Counted from the stretch's first letter, positions 3,875 through 14,653 are shown. The stretch: DNA of 64,000 nt from a virus (IMGVR_UViG_3300029288_005873:224001-288000), one strand, 5' to 3'. Notes: generated from the sequence alone by a model not told the origin. Numbers and translations: made by a program.

Positions 3875-4636
3875 TTATCCGAGGGTACATCTCCTCAGAA
3901 CGGGGTTGAAAAGTTCTATTTCACCAACACCTTTACACTTGGTACAGGTGTGAAAGATTCTCCGCACTCGAGGAACCATTCCCTTTAGGTCATCGGAACG
4001 ATAACCAAAGAGACCGGCGAACAAATCCCAAGTATCGTAGTATCTTTGGCTTTTCTGGCGCATCAGTATGAGCTGAACTTCCAACGGAAGTTTTGACAAC
4101 TCCCGCTGAAAAGTGCCGTTTTTGTTTTTGGGATTACATTCGCTACAATAGCGAACGATCATCCCTTTCCCGTTACAGTTGTTACATTTCCCAACAACCT
4201 TACCTCCCCTCTTGAACTCCCCACTGCCACCACATTTTCTACAAACCATCTCCTGTTTCCAGTGCCCATGACACTCGGGACACACGACCCAACCCGCTGT
4301 TGAGTTGGCTTCGTTATATCCCTTACCGAAACAATTGTCGCACGGAACTCCTGCTTTCGTGTGCGGAAGACCATTCCCCAAATCTTTTAGGGATTTGCCG
4401 TCCGTTGTGTATAGCATAGCGTTTGAAGAATCGTCCGACACGTCCAGAATAACATCTCCCTGAGTCAGGAGGTAGTCGTATGCTTCCTTTACCTTGATGA
4501 ACTCAGCAGAAGCATTTTCGCTTTTGTTGAGATCAGGGTGGGTTTCATGACTCCTTCTCCTGAACGCTGATTTGAGAATGACAGTCGTTACCGGAAGGAT
4601 GATACCAAGAACCTTGGAAGCTTCATGGACGGTCAT
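3875..4636 (-). CDS. DnaJ-like co-chaperone (J domain plus CxxCxGxG zinc fingers, no substrate-binding C-terminal domain)
   Basis: THPD motif, F..VKEAY, and repeats CDNCFGKG, CPECHG, CRKCGGSG, CNNCNGKG, CTKCKGVG. Confidence 0.85.
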   Translation of the reverse strand: MTVHEASKVLGIILPVTTVILKSAFRRRSHETHPDLNKSENASAEFIKVKEAYDYLLTQGDVILDVSDDSSNAMLYTTDGKSLKDLGNGLPHTKAGVPCDNCFGKGYNEANSTAGWVVCPECHGHWKQEMVCRKCGGSGEFKRGGKVVGKCNNCNGKGMIVRYCSECNPKNKNGTFQRELSKLPLEVQLILMRQKSQRYYDTWDLFAGLFGYRSDDLKGMVPRVRRIFHTCTKCKGVGEIELFNPVLRRCTLG

Positions 4637-4651: not shown

Positions 4652-5209
4652 CTATTCGGTTTTTGCTTGTTCCTCAGCCAGTGGTAGAACTTGCTTTGTG
4701 ATCTTGATATCACAACATCGATTGTAGCCAGGACATTCGGTCAGATGATACGACGCTATCAGCATCTGTGATGCTGTTAGCGGAAAATCAAACAATTGTT
4801 TGCTATGAGTAACTCTCTCCTCTACTACATCCATAGATTCTCTCTGTCCCAATCCGGTTACTTCACGCAGTGCATGAACAGCACTAATCCTGTTTTGAGC
4901 CATCCATTCGATCGGAACTTCAACATACCAACACACCAGCAGACTTCTCAGAGGGACCATATCACTACATTTCTCAGACAACTCCAACTCGCCGATGCGT
5001 TGTTTGAGTTCCTTGACGTTCTTAACCCGTTCGCAGAGAGCTTTATCAAGAGCTTCAGCACGATCTTTACAGTACTCCAGATCCTTTGTGAGAGTCTGGA
5101 TTGTGCTCCACATCCTATCCCTCACCACTTCGAAAGCGTTGGCGAGATTGTTATCCACCTTGCGAAGCAAGGCAATCAACGCAATAAAGATCGTAAACAG
5201 GGCTTCCAT
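4652..5209 (-). CDS. Coiled-coil protein with a ribosomal L7/L12 C-terminal-like motif
   Basis: Start re-set to MEALF (CAGGAG SD). NRISAVHALREVTGLGQRESMDVVE resembles the L7/L12 CTD motif KI.VIK.VR.ITGLGLKEAK.LVE. Confidence 0.55.
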   Translation of the reverse strand: MEALFTIFIALIALLRKVDNNLANAFEVVRDRMWSTIQTLTKDLEYCKDRAEALDKALCERVKNVKELKQRIGELELSEKCSDMVPLRSLLVCWYVEVPIEWMAQNRISAVHALREVTGLGQRESMDVVEERVTHSKQLFDFPLTASQMLIASYHLTECPGYNRCCDIKITKQVLPLAEEQAKTE

Positions 5210-5246
5210 GATATCTCCTGTATCGAATGTGTTGGACAGCTTATGG

Positions 5247-5486
5247 CTAAACCTCAGCCATCTTTCTGTATTTCTCTGAGAGAAGATCGGCAGCGACCTG
5301 AAGGTCCCAGTATTTGACTTTTCTGAGAGCCGAATACAAAGATATGGGAACTGTTGAGAATATGATATCGCCAAGCTCTGACAGCATGTCGATATTACAA
5401 TCCCAACTCTCCCATCTGATCGCTCTGTGTAGCGCCTCTTCTTTTGTCATGTCTTTATCCCACACAACCAGACTCCTGAATTTCAT
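5247..5486 (-). CDS. Hypothetical protein
   Basis: Probable start MKFRSL; overlaps the end of the upstream gene. Confidence 0.45.
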   Translation of the reverse strand: MKFRSLVVWDKDMTKEEALHRAIRWESWDCNIDMLSELGDIIFSTVPISLYSALRKVKYWDLQVAADLLSEKYRKMAEV

Positions 5487-8987: not shown

Positions 8988-9406
8988 ATTTTGGAGTCAC
9001 CGCTTAGTGCCAGGTCATACCATTCCTCTTCAGGTTAGGTTTTTCCTATTCGCACATGCGCTTCTCGCAGTTCTAGACGTGAATTTTTGAAGCTACAACC
9101 TAGGGCCAGGTCATACTCTTTCCCTCGTTAGCAGGCTTTACAACTCATACCATATACACCTATATGGTACACACATACGCTTATATAAGTTTTAAACATG
9201 AATTTGGAGTTATAACCTAGGGCCAGGTCATACCTTTTCCCTCGTTAGCAGGCTTTACAACTCATACCATATACACCTATATGGTACACACATACGCTTA
9301 TATGTTTTAAACATGAATTTGGAGTTATAACCTAGGGCCAGGTCATACCTTTTCCCTCGTTAGCGTGGATTTTGGGGTCTCTCCATTCGCCCATGCGCTT
9401 CTCGCA
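8988..9406. repeat. Non-coding tandem repeat region (115-117 bp unit with internal palindrome)
   Basis: Units start at 9097, 9214 and 9329 (AACCTAGGGCCAGGTCATAC...), with a degenerate copy at ~9005. Palindrome TACCATATA-CACC-TATATGGTA at 9148 and 9265. A separate 22-bp direct repeat lies at 9048 and 9385. Confidence 0.9.
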
Positions 9407-9559
9407 ATCTTTGATGCTAAACAAAGACAAGAAACCACAGGTTACTTCGGGTGCTCTCGCCACGGCATTTGGTTTTTCCTTACGGGCATTAGTGCCCAAC
9501 TGCCTATGACTTCGATATACAAACTTCCCCTCGGGTCCTGCCTGCTGCCTCCCCCTCAG

Positions 9560-9655
9560 TGGCACCAAGTGGGTTTGAACCACCAGCCCTCTCTGTCCGA
9601 GAGTCGGATACTCGGGACCGGAGCCCCGGTTGCCCGCCCCTGTGGCGGTGGTGCC
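9560..9655 (-). ncRNA. tRNA-like RNA (acceptor stem plus T-arm, no recognisable anticodon arm)
   Basis: GGCACCA/TGGTGCC-A acceptor, GGTGG-TTCAAAC-CCACT T-arm and three internal GC-rich hairpins. Confidence 0.55.
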
Positions 9656-9658
9656 GAA

Positions 9659-9699
9659 ACGGTGGGACCATAACCCTCGTTAAGCTATGGTCCCACCGT
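9659..9699. other. Perfect 14-bp inverted repeat downstream of rpsL
   Basis: ACGGTGGGACCATA-13nt-TATGGTCCCACCGT. Confidence 0.75.
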
Positions 9700-9715
9700 G
9701 CTGCTCAACACTTCC

Positions 9716-10120
9716 CTACTTCTTCGCCCGCTTCACCCCGTACTTGCTCCTGCTCTGGTTCCGGGGGTTCTTCTCACCACCGTTGCGGACCGTGTCTCCC
9801 GCAGCATCCGTCCCCTTGGCACCACGCACGATGTGATACTTCACACCGGGCAGGTCCTTCACCCTGCCGCCCCTGATCAGCACCGTCGAGTGCTCCTGCA
9901 GGTTGTGCCCGATTCCCGGGATGTACGCGATCACCGTGATCCCGTTCGACAGCCTCACCACCGCCACCTTGCGGTTCGCGGAGTTCGGCTTCTTCGGACC
10001 GACGGTGTACACCCTCAGGCACACACCCTTGCGCTGCGGACATCCCTGAAGCGCTGGCGCCTTGGATTTGTTCGCCAAACGCTTCCTACCTTGCCTCACC
10101 AGCTGGTTGATCGTCGGCAT
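9716..10120 (-). CDS. rpsL: 30S ribosomal protein S12 (uS12), stand-alone
   Basis: MPTINQLVR..., [42 protein letters not shown]. True start at 10120 (134 aa) with a GGAGG SD. Confidence 0.97.
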
Positions 10121-10442
10121 CTCCGTCCTCCTCTTCCTGAAGCATTGCGTCGATTTCCTCGATTTCATCCTCCGAGACACCATTGTCCAGGAGGATTTTC
10201 CTCATTTCCTCGATACTACACTCCTCGAGCACGATCTCCCTGCGATCACCCTTCTTCGCAAGGATGTGGTCCAGCTCCTTCTCATGCTTCGCCGCCTCGT
10301 GCCGCAGACGGTTGACGCACGAAAGAAGCTTCTCGTTCTTCACGTGAGCCTTCTTCAGAAGATCCATCATCTCCTCGGCCATCGATGATACCGTTGATAC
10401 CGCATCCAGACGCTCCGTGACCGAACTCGAATTCGAACCCAT
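10086..10442 (-). CDS. Hypothetical coiled-coil/acidic protein overlapping the rpsL start
   Basis: AAGGAG SD; 118 aa. Confidence 0.65.
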
Positions 10443-10481
10443 CGCTCATCTCCTTATCGGGCTGTAATCCTCACGTCCCTT

Positions 10482-10545
10482 TCCATCCCTCTGCGTTTTC
10501 ACGGGCTTGGGACCGTCGTCCCTTTGGGACGGCCGCATTGATGGA
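10482..10545 (-). ncRNA. Twister ribozyme (type P1), copy A
   Basis: UCCAU CAA UGCG GC CGUCCC-AAA-GGGACG ACGG UCCCAAGC CCGU GAAAA CGCA GAGGG AUGGA. P1, P2, P3, P4, the conserved L4 UCCCAAGC and the GAGGG pseudoknot partner are all present. Confidence 0.9.
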
Positions 10546-10760
10546 GCCCGCCTAGCGCCTGGATGCGCATCGGCGGGCGGCACGGATATGTGCCTTGTGC
10601 GCTCCCCAATTGTATGATCCGCATGTCGGGGAATGTCTTCCTCTCGCTTAGCGGGGAAGCTCTGTCCCATGCGGACCGCCCCATGTAGACTGTCCGCTAG
10701 CTGGGGCGCAAATGCCAGCGGACCAAGTATGCTCAAATAGTGACGGGAATCTCATTCCCT
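10546..10760 (-). ncRNA. Candidate multi-stem structured RNA upstream of twister A
   Basis: Several GC-rich stems (GCCCGCC/GGCGGGC, GGCAC/GUGCC, UCCGCAUG/CAUGCGGA, GUCCGCU/AGCGGAC) and no credible ORF. Confidence 0.4.
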
Positions 10761-10801
10761 CATCCCTTCTGATGCTGTAGCTATCAGCACCTATTTTTTC
10801 G

Positions 10802-11224
10802 TTAGTTCATCTTGGCGTCCATGGCGGCAACAACATCTGCCGCCATCTCCTCTACCGCCTTGTCGATCCCCATCTCATCGATCATCTCTTGGGCGCTGTC
10901 AGACAGACACATGACATTGACACCCTCCGGCACTAGGTCCAGGTCCTCCTCAGTGAAGAACCCAGCCTCGACCTTGGCGCGGTTCGGAGAGGCTAGGACC
11001 AAGTCCCTGTTGGGCATCTCCACCAGAATGCCGTCGTCCATCAGCTCCACAACCGCATACAGCATCTGTGACCGTCCGAGATCGTCCGAGCACATGTCGC
11101 AGAGCACCTCGAACGAGAAAGGCGCTTTCCTGCCCTCCACCAATCCGAACAGGAAAGCCTCCAGAACCTGGCTCCTCATTGTCTGATACCCGAATATCGC
11201 CTCTTCCGTCCTGTAAATCTTCAT
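10802..11224 (-). CDS. Hypothetical protein (possible winged-helix-like N-terminus)
   Basis: 140 aa with a GGAG SD. Confidence 0.6.
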   Translation of the reverse strand: MKIYRTEEAIFGYQTMRSQVLEAFLFGLVEGRKAPFSFEVLCDMCSDDLGRSQMLYAVVELMDDGILVEMPNRDLVLASPNRAKVEAGFFTEEDLDLVPEGVNVMCLSDSAQEMIDEMGIDKAVEEMAADVVAAMDAKMN

Positions 11225-11267
11225 GGTCGTCTCCCCTTGTATGATGAGGTGGACTCTCCCACGATCT

Positions 11268-11633
11268 CTAGCGCACTTTGAATCCAGCCTCCATGCATTT
11301 CCAGCGCGGAACTTCGGCTCCTACGGAGCCCATGAACCGTTCCGAGAGAAGCCGCGCTGAGAATTCGTCCCTCGTCATCGCGAACGCCAGAACCGCACAC
11401 CACCCCTCCTGCTTGGCCAGGTCCATCGTCAGCAGCTCCATGGGAATGCTCCTGGCGCTGGACAGGGAATTGTTGTCCGTGTCGCTGAGCTTCAGCAGCA
11501 TCTCCAGACCGCTGAGGACCTGTTCCATGTGCGATTCCATGGCATCATCGGTCACGTTATTGCTGACCCAAAGCCGGAGAGACACTACCAGTCCAGCTAT
11601 GAGATCCCTGTTTACCGGAACCATGACTTTCAT
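11268..11633 (-). CDS. Hypothetical protein
   Basis: Start re-set to MKVMVP (AGGAGG SD). Confidence 0.6.
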   Translation of the reverse strand: MKVMVPVNRDLIAGLVVSLRLWVSNNVTDDAMESHMEQVLSGLEMLLKLSDTDNNSLSSARSIPMELLTMDLAKQEGWCAVLAFAMTRDEFSARLLSERFMGSVGAEVPRWKCMEAGFKVR

Positions 11634-11720
11634 GTCGTTCCTCCTAGGGTTGTACACCTTTCCAGGAAAATTTCTCCTGGACCGAAATGCCGATCTGAGT
11701 TTTGGGAAAAACGCTAAGGC

Positions 11721-11948
11721 TCAGAAGTCAGAGTGCTCCTTTGTGCGGTAGTTAACCACATCCTCCACAAACTCCTGAATGGAACCTACCCACACTTGGA
11801 TATACTCCGGCAGCCCGAAGGGACGAATTATGTTCTCTGGCTTTGTCCCCTCTGGCACCACACCCAACAGCTCGGGTGAACTGTATGAGCCGCCTATCCA
11901 GCAAACCACGAGCGGTTTCGGTTTGACACGTCTTACCTTGTCAGCCAT
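11721..11948 (-). CDS. Hypothetical protein
   Basis: 75-aa ORF. Confidence 0.55.
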   Translation of the reverse strand: MADKVRRVKPKPLVVCWIGGSYSSPELLGVVPEGTKPENIIRPFGLPEYIQVWVGSIQEFVEDVVNYRTKEHSDF

Positions 11949-11986
11949 GGCTTTAACACCTTTTGGCTATTTTTCAGCCACGCATT

Positions 11987-12016
11987 AAAAGCCCCCCAGG
12001 AGGTATTCTGGGGGCT
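11987..12016 (-). terminator. Probable intrinsic terminator
   Basis: GC-rich hairpin (GCCCCCAG...CUGGGGGGC) followed by UUUUA on the minus strand. Confidence 0.55.
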
Positions 12017-12053
12017 CTATGGCTCCGGGTCCTGCGGACCCATCCATGCTTTT

Positions 12054-12260
12054 CTACGTCCCCGCCGTTTCCGCAGCCTCATTGAGGGCTCGGGAGATCC
12101 TTTTGCTGAGCTGGGTCGGGGTCATATTCTCCAAGGCTGCCTCCAGGAGGTTGCCTGCTGCTTCGAGGAGGGTTCGTGTTACGCGATCAAGTTCCAGCTC
12201 GGCGATTGTCCACGTCTCCGCCATCATGGTAGCGACGCTTTCCCTCTGCTCTTTGGTCAT
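12054..12260 (-). CDS. Hypothetical protein directly downstream of twister B
   Basis: 68 aa with an AAGGA SD. Confidence 0.6.
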   Translation of the reverse strand: MTKEQRESVATMMAETWTIAELELDRVTRTLLEAAGNLLEAALENMTPTQLSKRISRALNEAAETAGT

Positions 12261-12284
12261 GGCGTTGTCCTTTCACCTACATTT

Positions 12285-12350
12285 CCCCACCCCTCCGCAT
12301 TTGCACGGGCTTGGGACCGTCGTCCCGAAGGGACGGCTGCGTTATGGGAG
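12285..12350 (-). ncRNA. Twister ribozyme (type P1), copy B
   Basis: CUCCCA UAA CGCA GC CGUCCC-UUC-GGGACG ACGG UCCCAAGC CCGU GCAAA UGCG GAGGG GUGGGG. P2 shows compensatory changes (CGCA/UGCG) relative to copies A and C. Confidence 0.88.
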
Positions 12351-12417
12351 GGGCGCGAGGCGCCCCTTTATGTAGGACCTCCGGTCCTTGGTAGGGGAGT
12401 TGTAGAGCTTCTAGCTC

Positions 12418-12882
12418 TTAGTCGGTGGTGGGGCGCTCGGCGGGGCGGTCGTCGTCCCAGGTATCGGAGCCGATGGCGACGACGGAGCAGCTGAGCTGGA
12501 GGGCGAGACCGGCGACAGTGGCTTTGCCGTTGGCGTAGAAGCCGCACTTGCCGGAGGCGAAGATACGGGCGGTGGCGACGGTCTGGTCGATTTTGAGGGA
12601 CTTGAGGGTCTGGGGCTCGAGGGCGAGGAACTTCTGGATATCCTCGTCCTTGAGGCGTTTGGGGTCATCGGGCTTGGAGTGGGCGAGGGTGACGTTGAGG
12701 GAGACCTGGAAGGTCTTGGGCTCTCCGGCGACGTCGAGGGTGACCTTGCCGTTGTGGTTGAACCCCACCGAGCCGGTGGAGTTGGTGCGGGGCTCCATGG
12801 CACCGACGCCCAGCTGCTTGAGGCTGATGCTGCCCATGGTCAGGACGTCGCTCTTGAACCCCTCGGTCTGCTTCTTCGACAT
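12418..12882 (-). CDS. Hypothetical protein with an internal duplicated beta-rich motif, flanked by twister ribozymes
   Basis: Repeats PRTNSTGSVGFNHNGK...QVSLNVTLAHSK and ARIFASGKCGFYANGK...QLSCSVVAIGSD. AAGGAG SD and strong GC3 codon bias. Confidence 0.75.
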   Translation of the reverse strand: MSKKQTEGFKSDVLTMGSISLKQLGVGAMEPRTNSTGSVGFNHNGKVTLDVAGEPKTFQVSLNVTLAHSKPDDPKRLKDEDIQKFLALEPQTLKSLKIDQTVATARIFASGKCGFYANGKATVAGLALQLSCSVVAIGSDTWDDDRPAERPTTD

Positions 12883-12923
12883 GGTACATTCTCCTTCGGG
12901 ACCTTTGGTCCCATGTTAGGGTT

Positions 12924-12988
12924 GCGCCCCTCTGCGTTCGTCCGGGCTTGGGACCGGCGCCTCACCATTGAGGCGGCCGCATTGGCGC
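12924..12988 (-). ncRNA. Twister ribozyme (type P1), copy C
   Basis: GCGC CAA UGCG GC CGCCUCA-AUGG-UGAGGCG CCGG UCCCAAGC CCGG ACGAA CGCA GAGGG GCGC. P3 and P4 covary with copies A and B. Confidence 0.92.
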
Positions 12989-13086
12989 TGGAGGGGTTGA
13001 GTATCAGAGCCCCCTCCGGGCTCCGGGGTTGGGCCAGGCTATGCGCCCCCTTCCAACCACTGGCGGCGTCCCGCCAGATGAGATGT

Positions 13087-13266
13087 CTATCGCGTGATTC
13101 CCATCAACTGCTCGGCCTTCCTCGTGTTCCTGGTCCTGTAGTGGAGGGGGCGGCATTTATTGATGTCCCCAGCAGCCCTCCTACGGCTTGGCGGACAGAT
13201 CTCCACCTCCACCGTTTGCCCATCAATCACCTCGATGCGGACATTCTTGGCTTTCATCGCCTTCAT
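13087..13266 (-). CDS. Small basic hypothetical protein (59 aa, below ORF track cutoff)
   Basis: MKAMKAKNVRIEVIDGQTVEVEICPPSRRRAAGDINKCRPLHYRTRNTRKAEQLMGITR, just downstream of a promoter-like repeat. Confidence 0.5.
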   Translation of the reverse strand: MKAMKAKNVRIEVIDGQTVEVEICPPSRRRAAGDINKCRPLHYRTRNTRKAEQLMGITR

Positions 13267-13290
13267 CCTTGGCAGCGATTTTCCCTCGCG

Positions 13291-13331
13291 GGTTCAAAAC
13301 ATCCGCGGAAATTTTTCGCTGCAAAAATTTT
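13291..13331 (-). promoter_or_regulatory. Duplicated promoter-like element, copy 1
   Basis: Near-identical to 17421..17464. Minus strand reads A/T tract, TTGCAG, 17 nt, TGTTTT. Confidence 0.55.
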
Positions 13332-13396
13332 TCATCCATCGCGCAGGATCTTACTGTTCCGGGAAACTCCTGTGGCAATTACCTCATTTGAGCCTC

Positions 13397-13915
13397 CTAG
13401 GGAAGGATGAGGACTTCACGAAACATAGACCATGTTCCTGGGGCATAGAACCTAATACAATGGTCTATGACGGGATCAATGCTGAATGGGTCCATAAGGA
13501 CCGGTTTTCCGTCATTGTTCAGCATGACCTGAAGGTCTTGTGGCTCCATGTCGTGGTCCAGGAGAGTTTTGGCTATGACCTTCATGTCACTCAGAATCGG
13601 CTCCCAACCTCCTATTGCGTTTAGCAGGGGCATGACGGCGGCAGCCGCATTCCATCCATAGAAGGCGTCCAGGATTTCGACGGTCGGCACGAAGGGGCGC
13701 ATCCTATCCAGGCAGTTGTGTTCCTTCTTCAGTTGGACTGCGTGCTCGGTCAGCGCGACCGCCCGGTCGCCACTGGCGTAGACCAGCTTGTACCCACCTT
13801 CGCCCAGCCAGCGGGAGAACGGGTGCGCTTCCACGATTCGGCGGACACCCGTATCCGTGATGAGCTGTGCTACCCATTCTGGGGCATCTGGGAGTAGGAC
13901 CTCTTGACGCACCAT
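13397..13915 (-). CDS. Minimal protein kinase-like protein
   Basis: Gly-rich loop LGEGGYKLVY, helix-C Glu (KKEH), catalytic loop-like QDLQVM and DG..VLMDP. Confidence 0.6.
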   Translation of the reverse strand: MVRQEVLLPDAPEWVAQLITDTGVRRIVEAHPFSRWLGEGGYKLVYASGDRAVALTEHAVQLKKEHNCLDRMRPFVPTVEILDAFYGWNAAAAVMPLLNAIGGWEPILSDMKVIAKTLLDHDMEPQDLQVMLNNDGKPVLMDPFSIDPVIDHCIRFYAPGTWSMFREVLILP

Positions 13916-13916
13916 G

Positions 13917-14180
13917 TTATTCCACCTGTTCTAGCTCTCCGATGGAGACGGAAAGTGTGTGGAAGTTAAAGTTGGACCTCAGGAAACCGGAAGCGTCCAT
14001 GACTCGTTCTCCGCGCTCCCAGGCAGCGATGGTGTTCCAGTTCCCGCAGACTGACTCGAACTTGACCTGAACCGGAACGAACGTGTTACCCGTATGGGCG
14101 ACGACCCGTCCCACCTTTGTACGTTTCCCATCGGTCGAACGCCAGATGACCATGGAGCCGATGGCAGGAAGGCTTGTCAT
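13917..14180 (-). CDS. Hypothetical protein (SH3-like beta pattern)
   Basis: 87 aa, ATGA-coupled to the upstream gene. Confidence 0.5.
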   Translation of the reverse strand: MTSLPAIGSMVIWRSTDGKRTKVGRVVAHTGNTFVPVQVKFESVCGNWNTIAAWERGERVMDASGFLRSNFNFHTLSVSIGELEQVE

Positions 14181-14653
14181 TCCTGCACGATGTGGGGTCC
14201 CTCGTGGTCCTTTGCCGTGCGCCAGCAGTAGGTGCGCCCTTCGAGGGTAATATACATTCCAAGCTCATCCTTGCCGGTGAAGGTGCCGTACTGGACGACT
14301 CGGTTCCAGACTGCCATGGATACTTTCTCCATGACCGGGAGGATGTGCTCGGCATTAATCTGCTTCACCTGAGGACGGACGCTTTCGGCAAAGAGAGCGT
14401 ACGCCAGGCTTTCGGCGTCTCCTTTGGTGGGCGCGTTCATTTCCATCTTGATGGTGACCAGGAAGCGTTTCATGATGGTCATTCCTTTCTGGTGTCCGTA
14501 GAACAGGAAAAACATACAGGAGCTGCCATAGTGCTCCAGCCGCAGCTTCCTGGAGATGTCGCATTTCCCCTCGATGCGAACTCCCATGCACGAGGTTTCC
14601 ATACCCATGTACTACCAGTGAGCACAGAAGTTACAGGTGTGTCTGTTGTCCAT
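14177..14653 (-). pseudogene. ORF with an in-frame TAG at codon 14 interrupting a CxxCxHW...C...C zinc motif
   Basis: ATG 14653 with an AGGAG SD reads MDNRHTCNFCAHW*YMGMETSCMGVRIEGKC... in frame with the 14177..14608 ORF. A further SD-supported start lies near 14473-14482. Confidence 0.45.

Follow-up and report, generated by a model that had tools for sequence, protein, structure and literature searches.

Type-P1 twister ribozymes flanking a conserved gene family in a 442-kb phage, with a predicted role in mRNA processing

Ribozymes and UTR elements around a single gene

We have analysed a window of 64,000 nucleotides, which is the whole stretch of DNA considered here and corresponds to bases 224001-288000 of a virus record of 441,904 bp that is rated complete. 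Feature coordinates are window positions, and the features are collected in Table 1. The genome has a GC content of 43.9%, and almost all genes around the locus are on the minus strand. We observed at this locus ribozymes, their conservation next to one gene, a recurring UTR design and a strong codon bias. Three matches to the Rfam family RF03160 (twister-P1) were found in the window, all full-length and on the minus strand, with E-values of 2e-12 to 7e-11 for the whole window. Two of them, each covering model positions 1-68 of 68, flank a gene encoding a protein of 154 aa. The three twisters lie within 2.5 kb on the strand of this gene, and no further copies were found in the 441,904-bp genome with RF03160 or with our own family model. 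An Rfam scan of the window at the gathering threshold gave two tRNAs only, and the twisters appear with an E-value threshold; the curated cut-off of RF03160 is 67.2 bits, and the two flanking copies fall 7-8 bits below it. The twister of one relative, L004, scores 67.6 bits with the same model. The P1 helix of the downstream copy is CCCA/UGGG with a 1-nt bulge (an extra G), and therefore this element reaches 12286. A search for other ribozyme or RNA families around the locus (Rfam, E <= 10) returned none beyond chance-level rows, and a sigma-70 promoter scan of 9400-14200 gave zero sites.

Table 1. Positions of the features at the locus and of related features elsewhere (G000:C1, genome contig; L numbers, loci of relatives)
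Feature	Position	Strand	Remarks
Structured leader RNA	12989-13090	-	directly 5' of the upstream twister; alignment A4, 7 loci
Leader copies in relatives	L004 3799-3900; L012 1166-1267; L005 3206-3307; L003 3765-3866; L008 5724-5825		
Upstream type-P1 twister	12924-12988	-	RF03160 59.5 bits, E 7e-11; family model R1 75.5 bits
5'-UTR hairpin	12898-12912	-	GGGACC-AAA-GGUCCC; immediately precedes the Shine-Dalgarno sequence
Shine-Dalgarno sequence	12891-12896	-	AAGGAG; 8 nt before the ATG
154-aa gene (P0001)	12418-12882	-	two ~50-aa beta-rich repeats and an acidic C-terminal tail
3' UTR	12350-12418	-	three hairpins: 12404-12418, 12374-12388, 12350-12366
Downstream type-P1 twister	12286-12348	-	RF03160 (12287-12348) 60.6 bits, E 3e-11; R1 75.4 bits
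Third twister	10483-10544	-	RF03160 65.1 bits; R1 82 bits; bounds the next block of four small genes
Predicted 640-nt RNA	12983-12344	-	5' terminus AAUGCGGCC... (12983); 3' terminus ...CCCCUCCCAU (12344)
PF09414 RNA ligase	G000:C1:148147-149010	-	adjoins an endonuclease VII gene; needs healed ends
AAA_33 (PNK-like) kinase	G000:C1:127933-128511	-	
2H phosphoesterase domain	G000:C1:394652-395068	-	within a 709-aa ORF

Roth et al. (2014) reportedly placed twister cleavage 5' of the invariant AA. The cuts predicted at this position fall between 12984 and 12983 in the upstream copy and between 12344 and 12343 in the downstream copy, and they would release a minus-strand RNA of 640 nt. The body of the upstream twister (12983-12924) is predicted to remain on the 5' end of this RNA, and that of the downstream twister would become the 5' end of the next mRNA, which carries a 68-aa gene with its ATG at 12260. 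One gene with outside support, that of the 154-aa protein, is found inside the 640-nt RNA. An earlier note on this DNA had described two twisters bracketing only this gene, a released RNA of 640 nt and a strong Shine-Dalgarno sequence, and it is borne out in each respect by the RF03160 matches on both sides, the one supported gene between them, the predicted cuts and the AAGGAG before the start codon. The third twister belongs to the transcription unit of the flanked gene. Separately, a terminator-like hairpin with a U-run lies just after the 68-aa gene (11993-12014, minus strand), which is suggestive of a short unit of three genes, with read-through as far as the third twister.

Both flanking copies contain the core nucleotides of the Rfam model (AA at the cut, GCC, GGUCCCAAGCCC, AA and GAGGG), and these are invariant or nearly so over the 19 twister copies of alignment A2, which were taken from the window and from contigs encoding homologues of the 154-aa gene. 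The base preceding the cut is U or C over the family, at about equal frequency. In the four nested helices, 92.6% of the cells of this alignment are standard pairs, and 13 of the 16 pairs show compensatory changes. None of 500 shuffles matched the observed values, and pairing fell to 27-50% when the partners were slid by 1-3 columns. When both pseudoknots are included, compensatory change is seen in 16 of 21 pairs: in T1, G-C is replaced by A-U in three copies, and in T2, the pair counts show CCC/GGG replaced by UCC/GGA and CCG/CGG, with CCA/UGG in L008_3rd as read from the alignment. We take both flanking elements to be functional twisters on the strength of these sequence comparisons, with cleavage predicted.

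The leader, about 100 nt long, immediately precedes those twisters that have GCGC as P1. Its elements are a hairpin with a GGACGC loop, a GGUUGG/CCAACC stem that reads GGUAGG/CCUACC in L005, and a third stem, GGNGGGG/CCCCNCC, which covaries; RNAalifold on alignment A4 gave 21 pairs, with compensatory changes in 8. The leader has zero Rfam matches and occurs as a single copy within the window. It accompanies the twister even before a different gene (L005, L008, L013), and at the present locus it is predicted to be cut off the mRNA of the gene by the upstream twister.

Between the upstream twister and the gene, the order is twister, about 9 nt, a GC hairpin, directly followed by the Shine-Dalgarno sequence, and the ATG. 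Equivalent hairpins of differing sequence occupy the same place in L001, L002, L004, L012 and L013, and L014 keeps the hairpin although no twister precedes it; examples from other loci are GGGCCC-UGC-GGGCCC and GGGCC-UAU-GGCCC. On the 3' side, the last of the UTR hairpins ends 5 nt before the cut, so that the final 45 nt have a dG of -24.1 kcal/mol and a 5-nt tail. In the relatives, the 3' arm of the GC hairpin in the 3' UTR likewise stops 0-6 nt before the downstream cut, and in L013 and L014 the 3' UTR hairpin replaces the P1 of the twister. When the final 45 nt of the upstream cleavage fragment were considered, 21 of 23 twisters had a dG of -10 kcal/mol or lower and a tail of 7 nt or shorter, but 59% of 600 random positions from those loci also qualified. 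The mean dG was -18.3 kcal/mol at the twisters versus -12.5 kcal/mol at the random positions. By our own binomial estimate the contrast is at about 7e-4, which we regard as moderate and not overwhelming, the control being only moderately discriminating in GC-rich DNA.

Also, hairpins of the form GGACC-N3-GGTCC occur six times in the 442-kb genome, and five of them (starts 6914, 12375, 12899, 15017 and 17502) are inside the GC-rich island described below. Two are in the UTRs of the flanked gene, and GGGACC-GCA-GGUCCC recurs in the UTRs of related loci. This hairpin could be a protein-binding or processing signal.

Conservation of the ribozymes and codon usage of the gene

The DNA around the 154-aa gene was read for 11 distinct lineages, the window included. 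A twister is present on at least one side of the gene in 10 of these and on both sides in six, namely the window, L001, L003, L004, L012 and L013, in which both copies are intact. In L002, the upstream copy is intact and the downstream one is a relic with a perfect 3' half, a broken 5' half and GA replacing AA at the cut. On the other hand, L008/L009/L011 have an intact downstream copy and a decayed upstream relic (17.7 bits). L007 and L014 have the downstream twister only. In L005/L006 no twister adjoins the gene, and two copies lie on either side of an unrelated cassette at a distance of 1 kb. A diverged paralogue of the gene, located 14.5 kb away in the same genome, is also without a twister.

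From the presence of at least one twister in 10 of the 11 lineages, and of both in six, we consider that the pairing of this gene with the ribozyme is strongly preferred. It is not obligatory, and either ribozyme can vanish alone. Considering that the gene is found without twisters in L005 and as the in-genome paralogue, the ribozymes are not essential to the gene. The relics of L002 (4443-4507) and L008 (3917-3980) occupy positions at which relatives keep an intact twister, and the final 26 nt of the coding sequence fall within the relic of L002. Further relatives of the gene were looked for in IMG/VR, where the scan gave none, and in metagenomes, where it gave 3 loci; a search of genome contigs with P0058 found none.

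The 154-aa gene has a GC3 of 0.92 and ranks first against 511 ORFs of the genome (mean 0.40, sd 0.10), none of which is higher, in agreement with the biased codons that the earlier note had pointed out. Among nine related loci, seven have the homologue as their highest-GC3 gene; it shares the first place in L014 and comes second in L003. L007 is AT-rich, and there the homologue has a GC3 of 0.68 versus 0.26-0.36 in its neighbours; at several loci the GC3 of the neighbours is much below that of the flanked gene. The gene is contained in a GC-rich island at about 6.5-17.5 kb of the window with 53-64% GC, where 14 of the genome's 25 ORFs with the highest GC3 are located; 11 of the 14 share the minus strand with the gene. 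Accordingly, the high GC3 could reflect the island and not expression. However, the bias follows the gene through genomes of 38-74% GC, which argues for selection on its own mRNA or translation and not only for regional composition. The codon usage points to heavy expression of the 154-aa protein.

The flanked protein

P0001 has 24 homologues at 51-87% identity, all unnamed. Its repeats carry the signature F-S-T-G-S-V-G-[WFY]..N-G-K...Q-V..N-x-T..G-S-K, and the tail W-x-D-x-R-P-A-E-R-P is conserved. The internally duplicated motif noticed earlier is real, since each half of the protein matches single-repeat proteins in a profile search. The same search returned 380 cluster representatives at E <= 0.001 (P0025-P0173) with one to three repeats each. 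By sequence, these repeat proteins form a large unannotated superfamily with the signature FSTGSVGW..NGK...QV.N.T.IGSK. Pfam and PHROG searches with P0001 and ten distant relatives gave zero families, the repeat being without a Pfam family, and the cluster tables hold zero names for the relatives of P0001.

The AF2 models are confident, with a pLDDT of 91 for P0001 and 92.5 for a single repeat. Foldseek (PDB, BFVD), a wide VIA-align search and the ESM Atlas gave best Z values of 3.5 (whole protein) and 3.7 (single repeat), with zero structural neighbours of weight. Weak structural matches include several PUR-alpha repeats, PC4/Sub1, Hfq/Sm and ssRNA-phage coat proteins. The PC4/PUR/Whirly-like binders of single-stranded nucleic acid, a class defined by a four-stranded antiparallel sheet with a helix, were considered for P0001; Pur-alpha 3nm7 has a Z of 3.1 with the single repeat and 2.6 with the whole protein, and nothing reaches Z 5. 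Matches of this kind to nucleic-acid binders make an abundant single-strand nucleic-acid binder a lead only, and we consider this role for P0001 doubtful. The SSB family PF00436 has zero matches in the genome. The CFA/I fimbrial subunit B, a marginal hit in a PDB sequence profile search with zero stretches passing alone, was treated as compositional. Since the protein is without a recognisable family or fold, the word 'effector', by which it had been described from the sequence, was an unsupported guess.

The in-genome paralogue (G000:C1:221477-221947, minus strand; L017 478-948), 2.5 kb before the window, is a diverged two-repeat protein of 156 aa. Its GC3 of 0.72 is among the highest of the genome, and it has a Shine-Dalgarno sequence and an upstream hairpin with zero twisters.

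Proposed processing of the transcript and alternative readings

We consider, with a probability of roughly 0.6, that the twisters trim a multi-gene phage transcript into an end-protected, linear, single-gene mRNA; cleavage in vivo, stabilisation and high expression are what we infer in this reading. The twisters would act as RNA-processing sites independent of host enzymes and would cut polycistronic phage RNA. The upstream cut would remove the preceding small gene together with the structured leader, and the mRNA would then begin with a 5'-OH buried in the compact, pseudoknotted twister fold, behind which the GC hairpin and then an exposed, strong ribosome-binding site would follow. The downstream cut would fall 0-6 nt past a stable GC hairpin, and the mRNA would therefore be left with this hairpin, a short tail and a terminal 2',3'-cyclic phosphate at its 3' end. 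Such a linear mRNA would be independent of the neighbouring genes, and 5'-end-initiated decay and 3' exonucleases would have poor access to it; this may allow a very high output of the 154-aa protein. On the one hand, RNase E in its 5'-monophosphate-dependent mode enters poorly at 5'-OH ends, and a 3' end that lies close to a hairpin and lacks a 3'-OH is resistant to tailing and to 3' exonucleases. On the other hand, a 5'-OH can act as a signal for decay where the host has RNase J, as in the glmS case, which counts against stabilisation. A comparable role for clustered ribozymes, the cutting of polycistronic phage RNA, was put forward for hammerheads in 2011 (PMC3088659) and subsequently for twisters (PMC6765202).

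The cuts might instead serve mainly to detach and destabilise, or to translationally reset, the flanking cistrons, which encode 59 aa upstream and 68 aa downstream, and would in this case give unequal output from one promoter. The distance from each twister to the following start codon is also about 25-45 nt, the neighbours of the flanked gene have a much lower GC3 at several loci, and differential fragment stability has been suggested in the literature (PMC6765202). However, the upstream fragments end in flush hairpins and the downstream ones start with a twister fold, so that all pieces would be protected and none sacrificed. We regard this possibility as improbable taken by itself, although it overlaps with the processing of a linear mRNA more than it excludes it.

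It is considerably less probable that both cuts are followed by joining of the ends of the 640-nt RNA into a translatable circle, either by a host RtcB or by end-healing enzymes and an Rnl2-type ligase of the phage. If true, a bacterial virus would here produce a circular mRNA naturally by means of ribozymes. The 5'-OH and 2',3'-cyclic phosphate are the substrate ends of RtcB (PMC13067282), and the phage has coding sequences for a PF09414 RNA ligase, an AAA_33 kinase and a 2H phosphoesterase. However, these three are located 75-160 kb from the locus and make up the usual tRNA-repair kit, and RtcB (PF01139), for which the earlier note had suggested a search of the rest of the genome, has zero matches in the phage. 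In one relative contig, an AAA_33 kinase gene is located directly upstream of the homologue.

The ends themselves also bear on the circle. The RNAs of the window and L004 carry GCGCCCCUC within their final 13 nt, a complement of GAGGGGCGC on the 3' side of the retained twister; the end duplex reaches -22.0 kcal/mol in the window and -26.8 kcal/mol in L004, values attained by 0.7% and 0% of shuffled tails, respectively. As we read the sequence, the 9-bp end helix would stack on P2 and place both ends at one junction. However, end pairing is above that of shuffled tails in two of six loci, the window and L004, and not in L012, L001, L003 and L013. The tail of the window RNA forms an equally good duplex with the downstream ribozyme of its own locus (-23.5 kcal/mol), since the partner is the universally conserved GAGGG strand, and pairing through this strand would unfold the T2 pseudoknot. 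Since both ribozymes are of the P1 type, the upstream ribozyme body stays on the product, and for the 5' end of the twister 3' fragment, burial and poor ligation have been reported (PMC8782182). The P1 strands are mismatched (GCGC versus CCCA/UCCA), and therefore the two ends cannot rebuild a ribozyme; a twister reconstituted across both ends for self-ligation was rejected, with mismatched strands in all six loci. Also, the gene is kept with one ribozyme decayed or absent in L002, L008, L014 and L005, and circles of hammerhead-flanked phage genes were sought and not detected (PMC3088659). Rolling-circle translation was rejected as well, as a TAA stop codon closes the ORF and the length of 640 nt is not divisible by 3. 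The earlier note had proposed a stable monocistronic or circular mRNA. The first part fits the conserved UTR anatomy and the codon bias, which is extreme in every relative. The second, the circle, lacks support, given the P1/P1 layout, the unconserved end pairing, the P1 strands that cannot be exchanged, the ribozyme losses and the absence of RtcB from the phage.

That the twisters and leader are mobile or hitch-hiking RNA modules of no benefit to the flanked gene is the least probable of the readings: twister positions shift among relatives, a leader-plus-twister precedes an unrelated cassette in L005 and the module precedes another gene in L008, L013 carries four twister copies within 1.35 kb, and the identities of ribozyme-flanked genes generally vary (PMC3088659), but all six twister helices are under purifying selection, 10 of the 11 lineages keep an adjoining twister across 51-87% protein identity, and the hairpin and Shine-Dalgarno elements are co-conserved around the twisters. 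Two of the intact twisters of L013 (2258-2318 and 2400-2460) are 81 nt apart with zero ORFs between them, and the RNA set free by this close pair would be about 140 nt long and consist mostly of ribozyme.

The trimming of a phage transcript into a linear, single-gene mRNA can be compared with several known systems. In ribozyme-flanked prophage genes (Perreault 2011, PMC3088659; twisters near phage genes, PMC6765202), co-oriented intergenic ribozymes bracket single genes or short gene blocks, and a single gene likewise here, and the processing of long transcripts into gene-length mRNAs has been proposed for them too. The ribozymes here are type-P1 twisters in a 442-kb phage, whereas those of Perreault 2011 are hammerheads in prophages. 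The flanked gene belongs here to one family in 10 of 11 lineages, whereas gene identities vary in the 2011 paper (PMC3088659), and in contrast to the 2011 clusters, a fixed hairpin/Shine-Dalgarno/hairpin UTR design accompanies the ribozymes.

In E. coli, RiboJ, a ribozyme with a 23-nt hairpin before the RBS, increased protein output 2-10 fold and transcript levels about 2 fold, and its terminal hairpin has been suggested as the cause (PMC6206723). The present locus resembles it in the order of ribozyme, hairpin and RBS, and in that cleavage strips variable upstream RNA. However, RiboJ is engineered from the hammerhead-type sTRSV ribozyme, whereas the locus is natural and has a 3' processing site in addition; RiboJ leaves a hairpin-containing remnant before the RBS, whereas nearly the whole twister would be retained here.

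In the Tornado system, a 5' P3 twister U2A, a 3' P1 twister, a homology stem and RtcB are combined, and both ribozyme bodies leave (PMC13067282). Two twisters flank the cargo in Tornado and at our locus, and the ends, predicted in our case, are a 5'-OH and a 2',3'-cyclic phosphate. Unlike in Tornado, the layout here is P1/P1 with the upstream twister retained on the cargo, and a conserved end-joining homology stem and a locus-linked ligase are absent.

In the early genes of T7, RNase III sites punctuate a polycistronic RNA and leave a protective 3' hairpin on each mRNA. T7 needs a host enzyme for this, whereas the RNA here would cut itself and leave 5'-OH and cyclic phosphate ends.

The ribozymes of this locus are ordinary type-P1 twisters, and ribozyme-bracketed phage genes have already been published. 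To these, the locus adds the fixed gene family between the ribozymes across a huge-phage clade, the conserved combination of a RiboJ-like 5' design with a flush 3' hairpin, the extreme codon signature and the covarying leader of about 100 nt. The roles of bacterial and phage twisters have been described as an open question (PMC6765202), and this locus offers a clean, conserved test case for ribozymes as host-enzyme-free sites of mRNA maturation, as well as natural parts resembling synthetic insulators. The flanked protein and its repeat superfamily may be a major product of these phages.

A phage homologue of ribosomal protein uS12 is encoded at 9716-10183 on the minus strand (PF00164, E 1.8e-34). 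In L014, an S12 gene is located two genes past the homologue of the flanked gene, and L7/L12-like genes are nearby in L002 and L008. The window also contains a weak L7/L12-like gene at 4652-5374 and a DnaJ-like gene at 3875-4636. Directly after the uS12 gene, at 9559-9655 on the minus strand, ARAGORN predicts a 97-nt tRNA-Arg(CCG), for which the Rfam tRNA model is silent at E <= 0.01; this element may be an atypical tRNA or a mimic.
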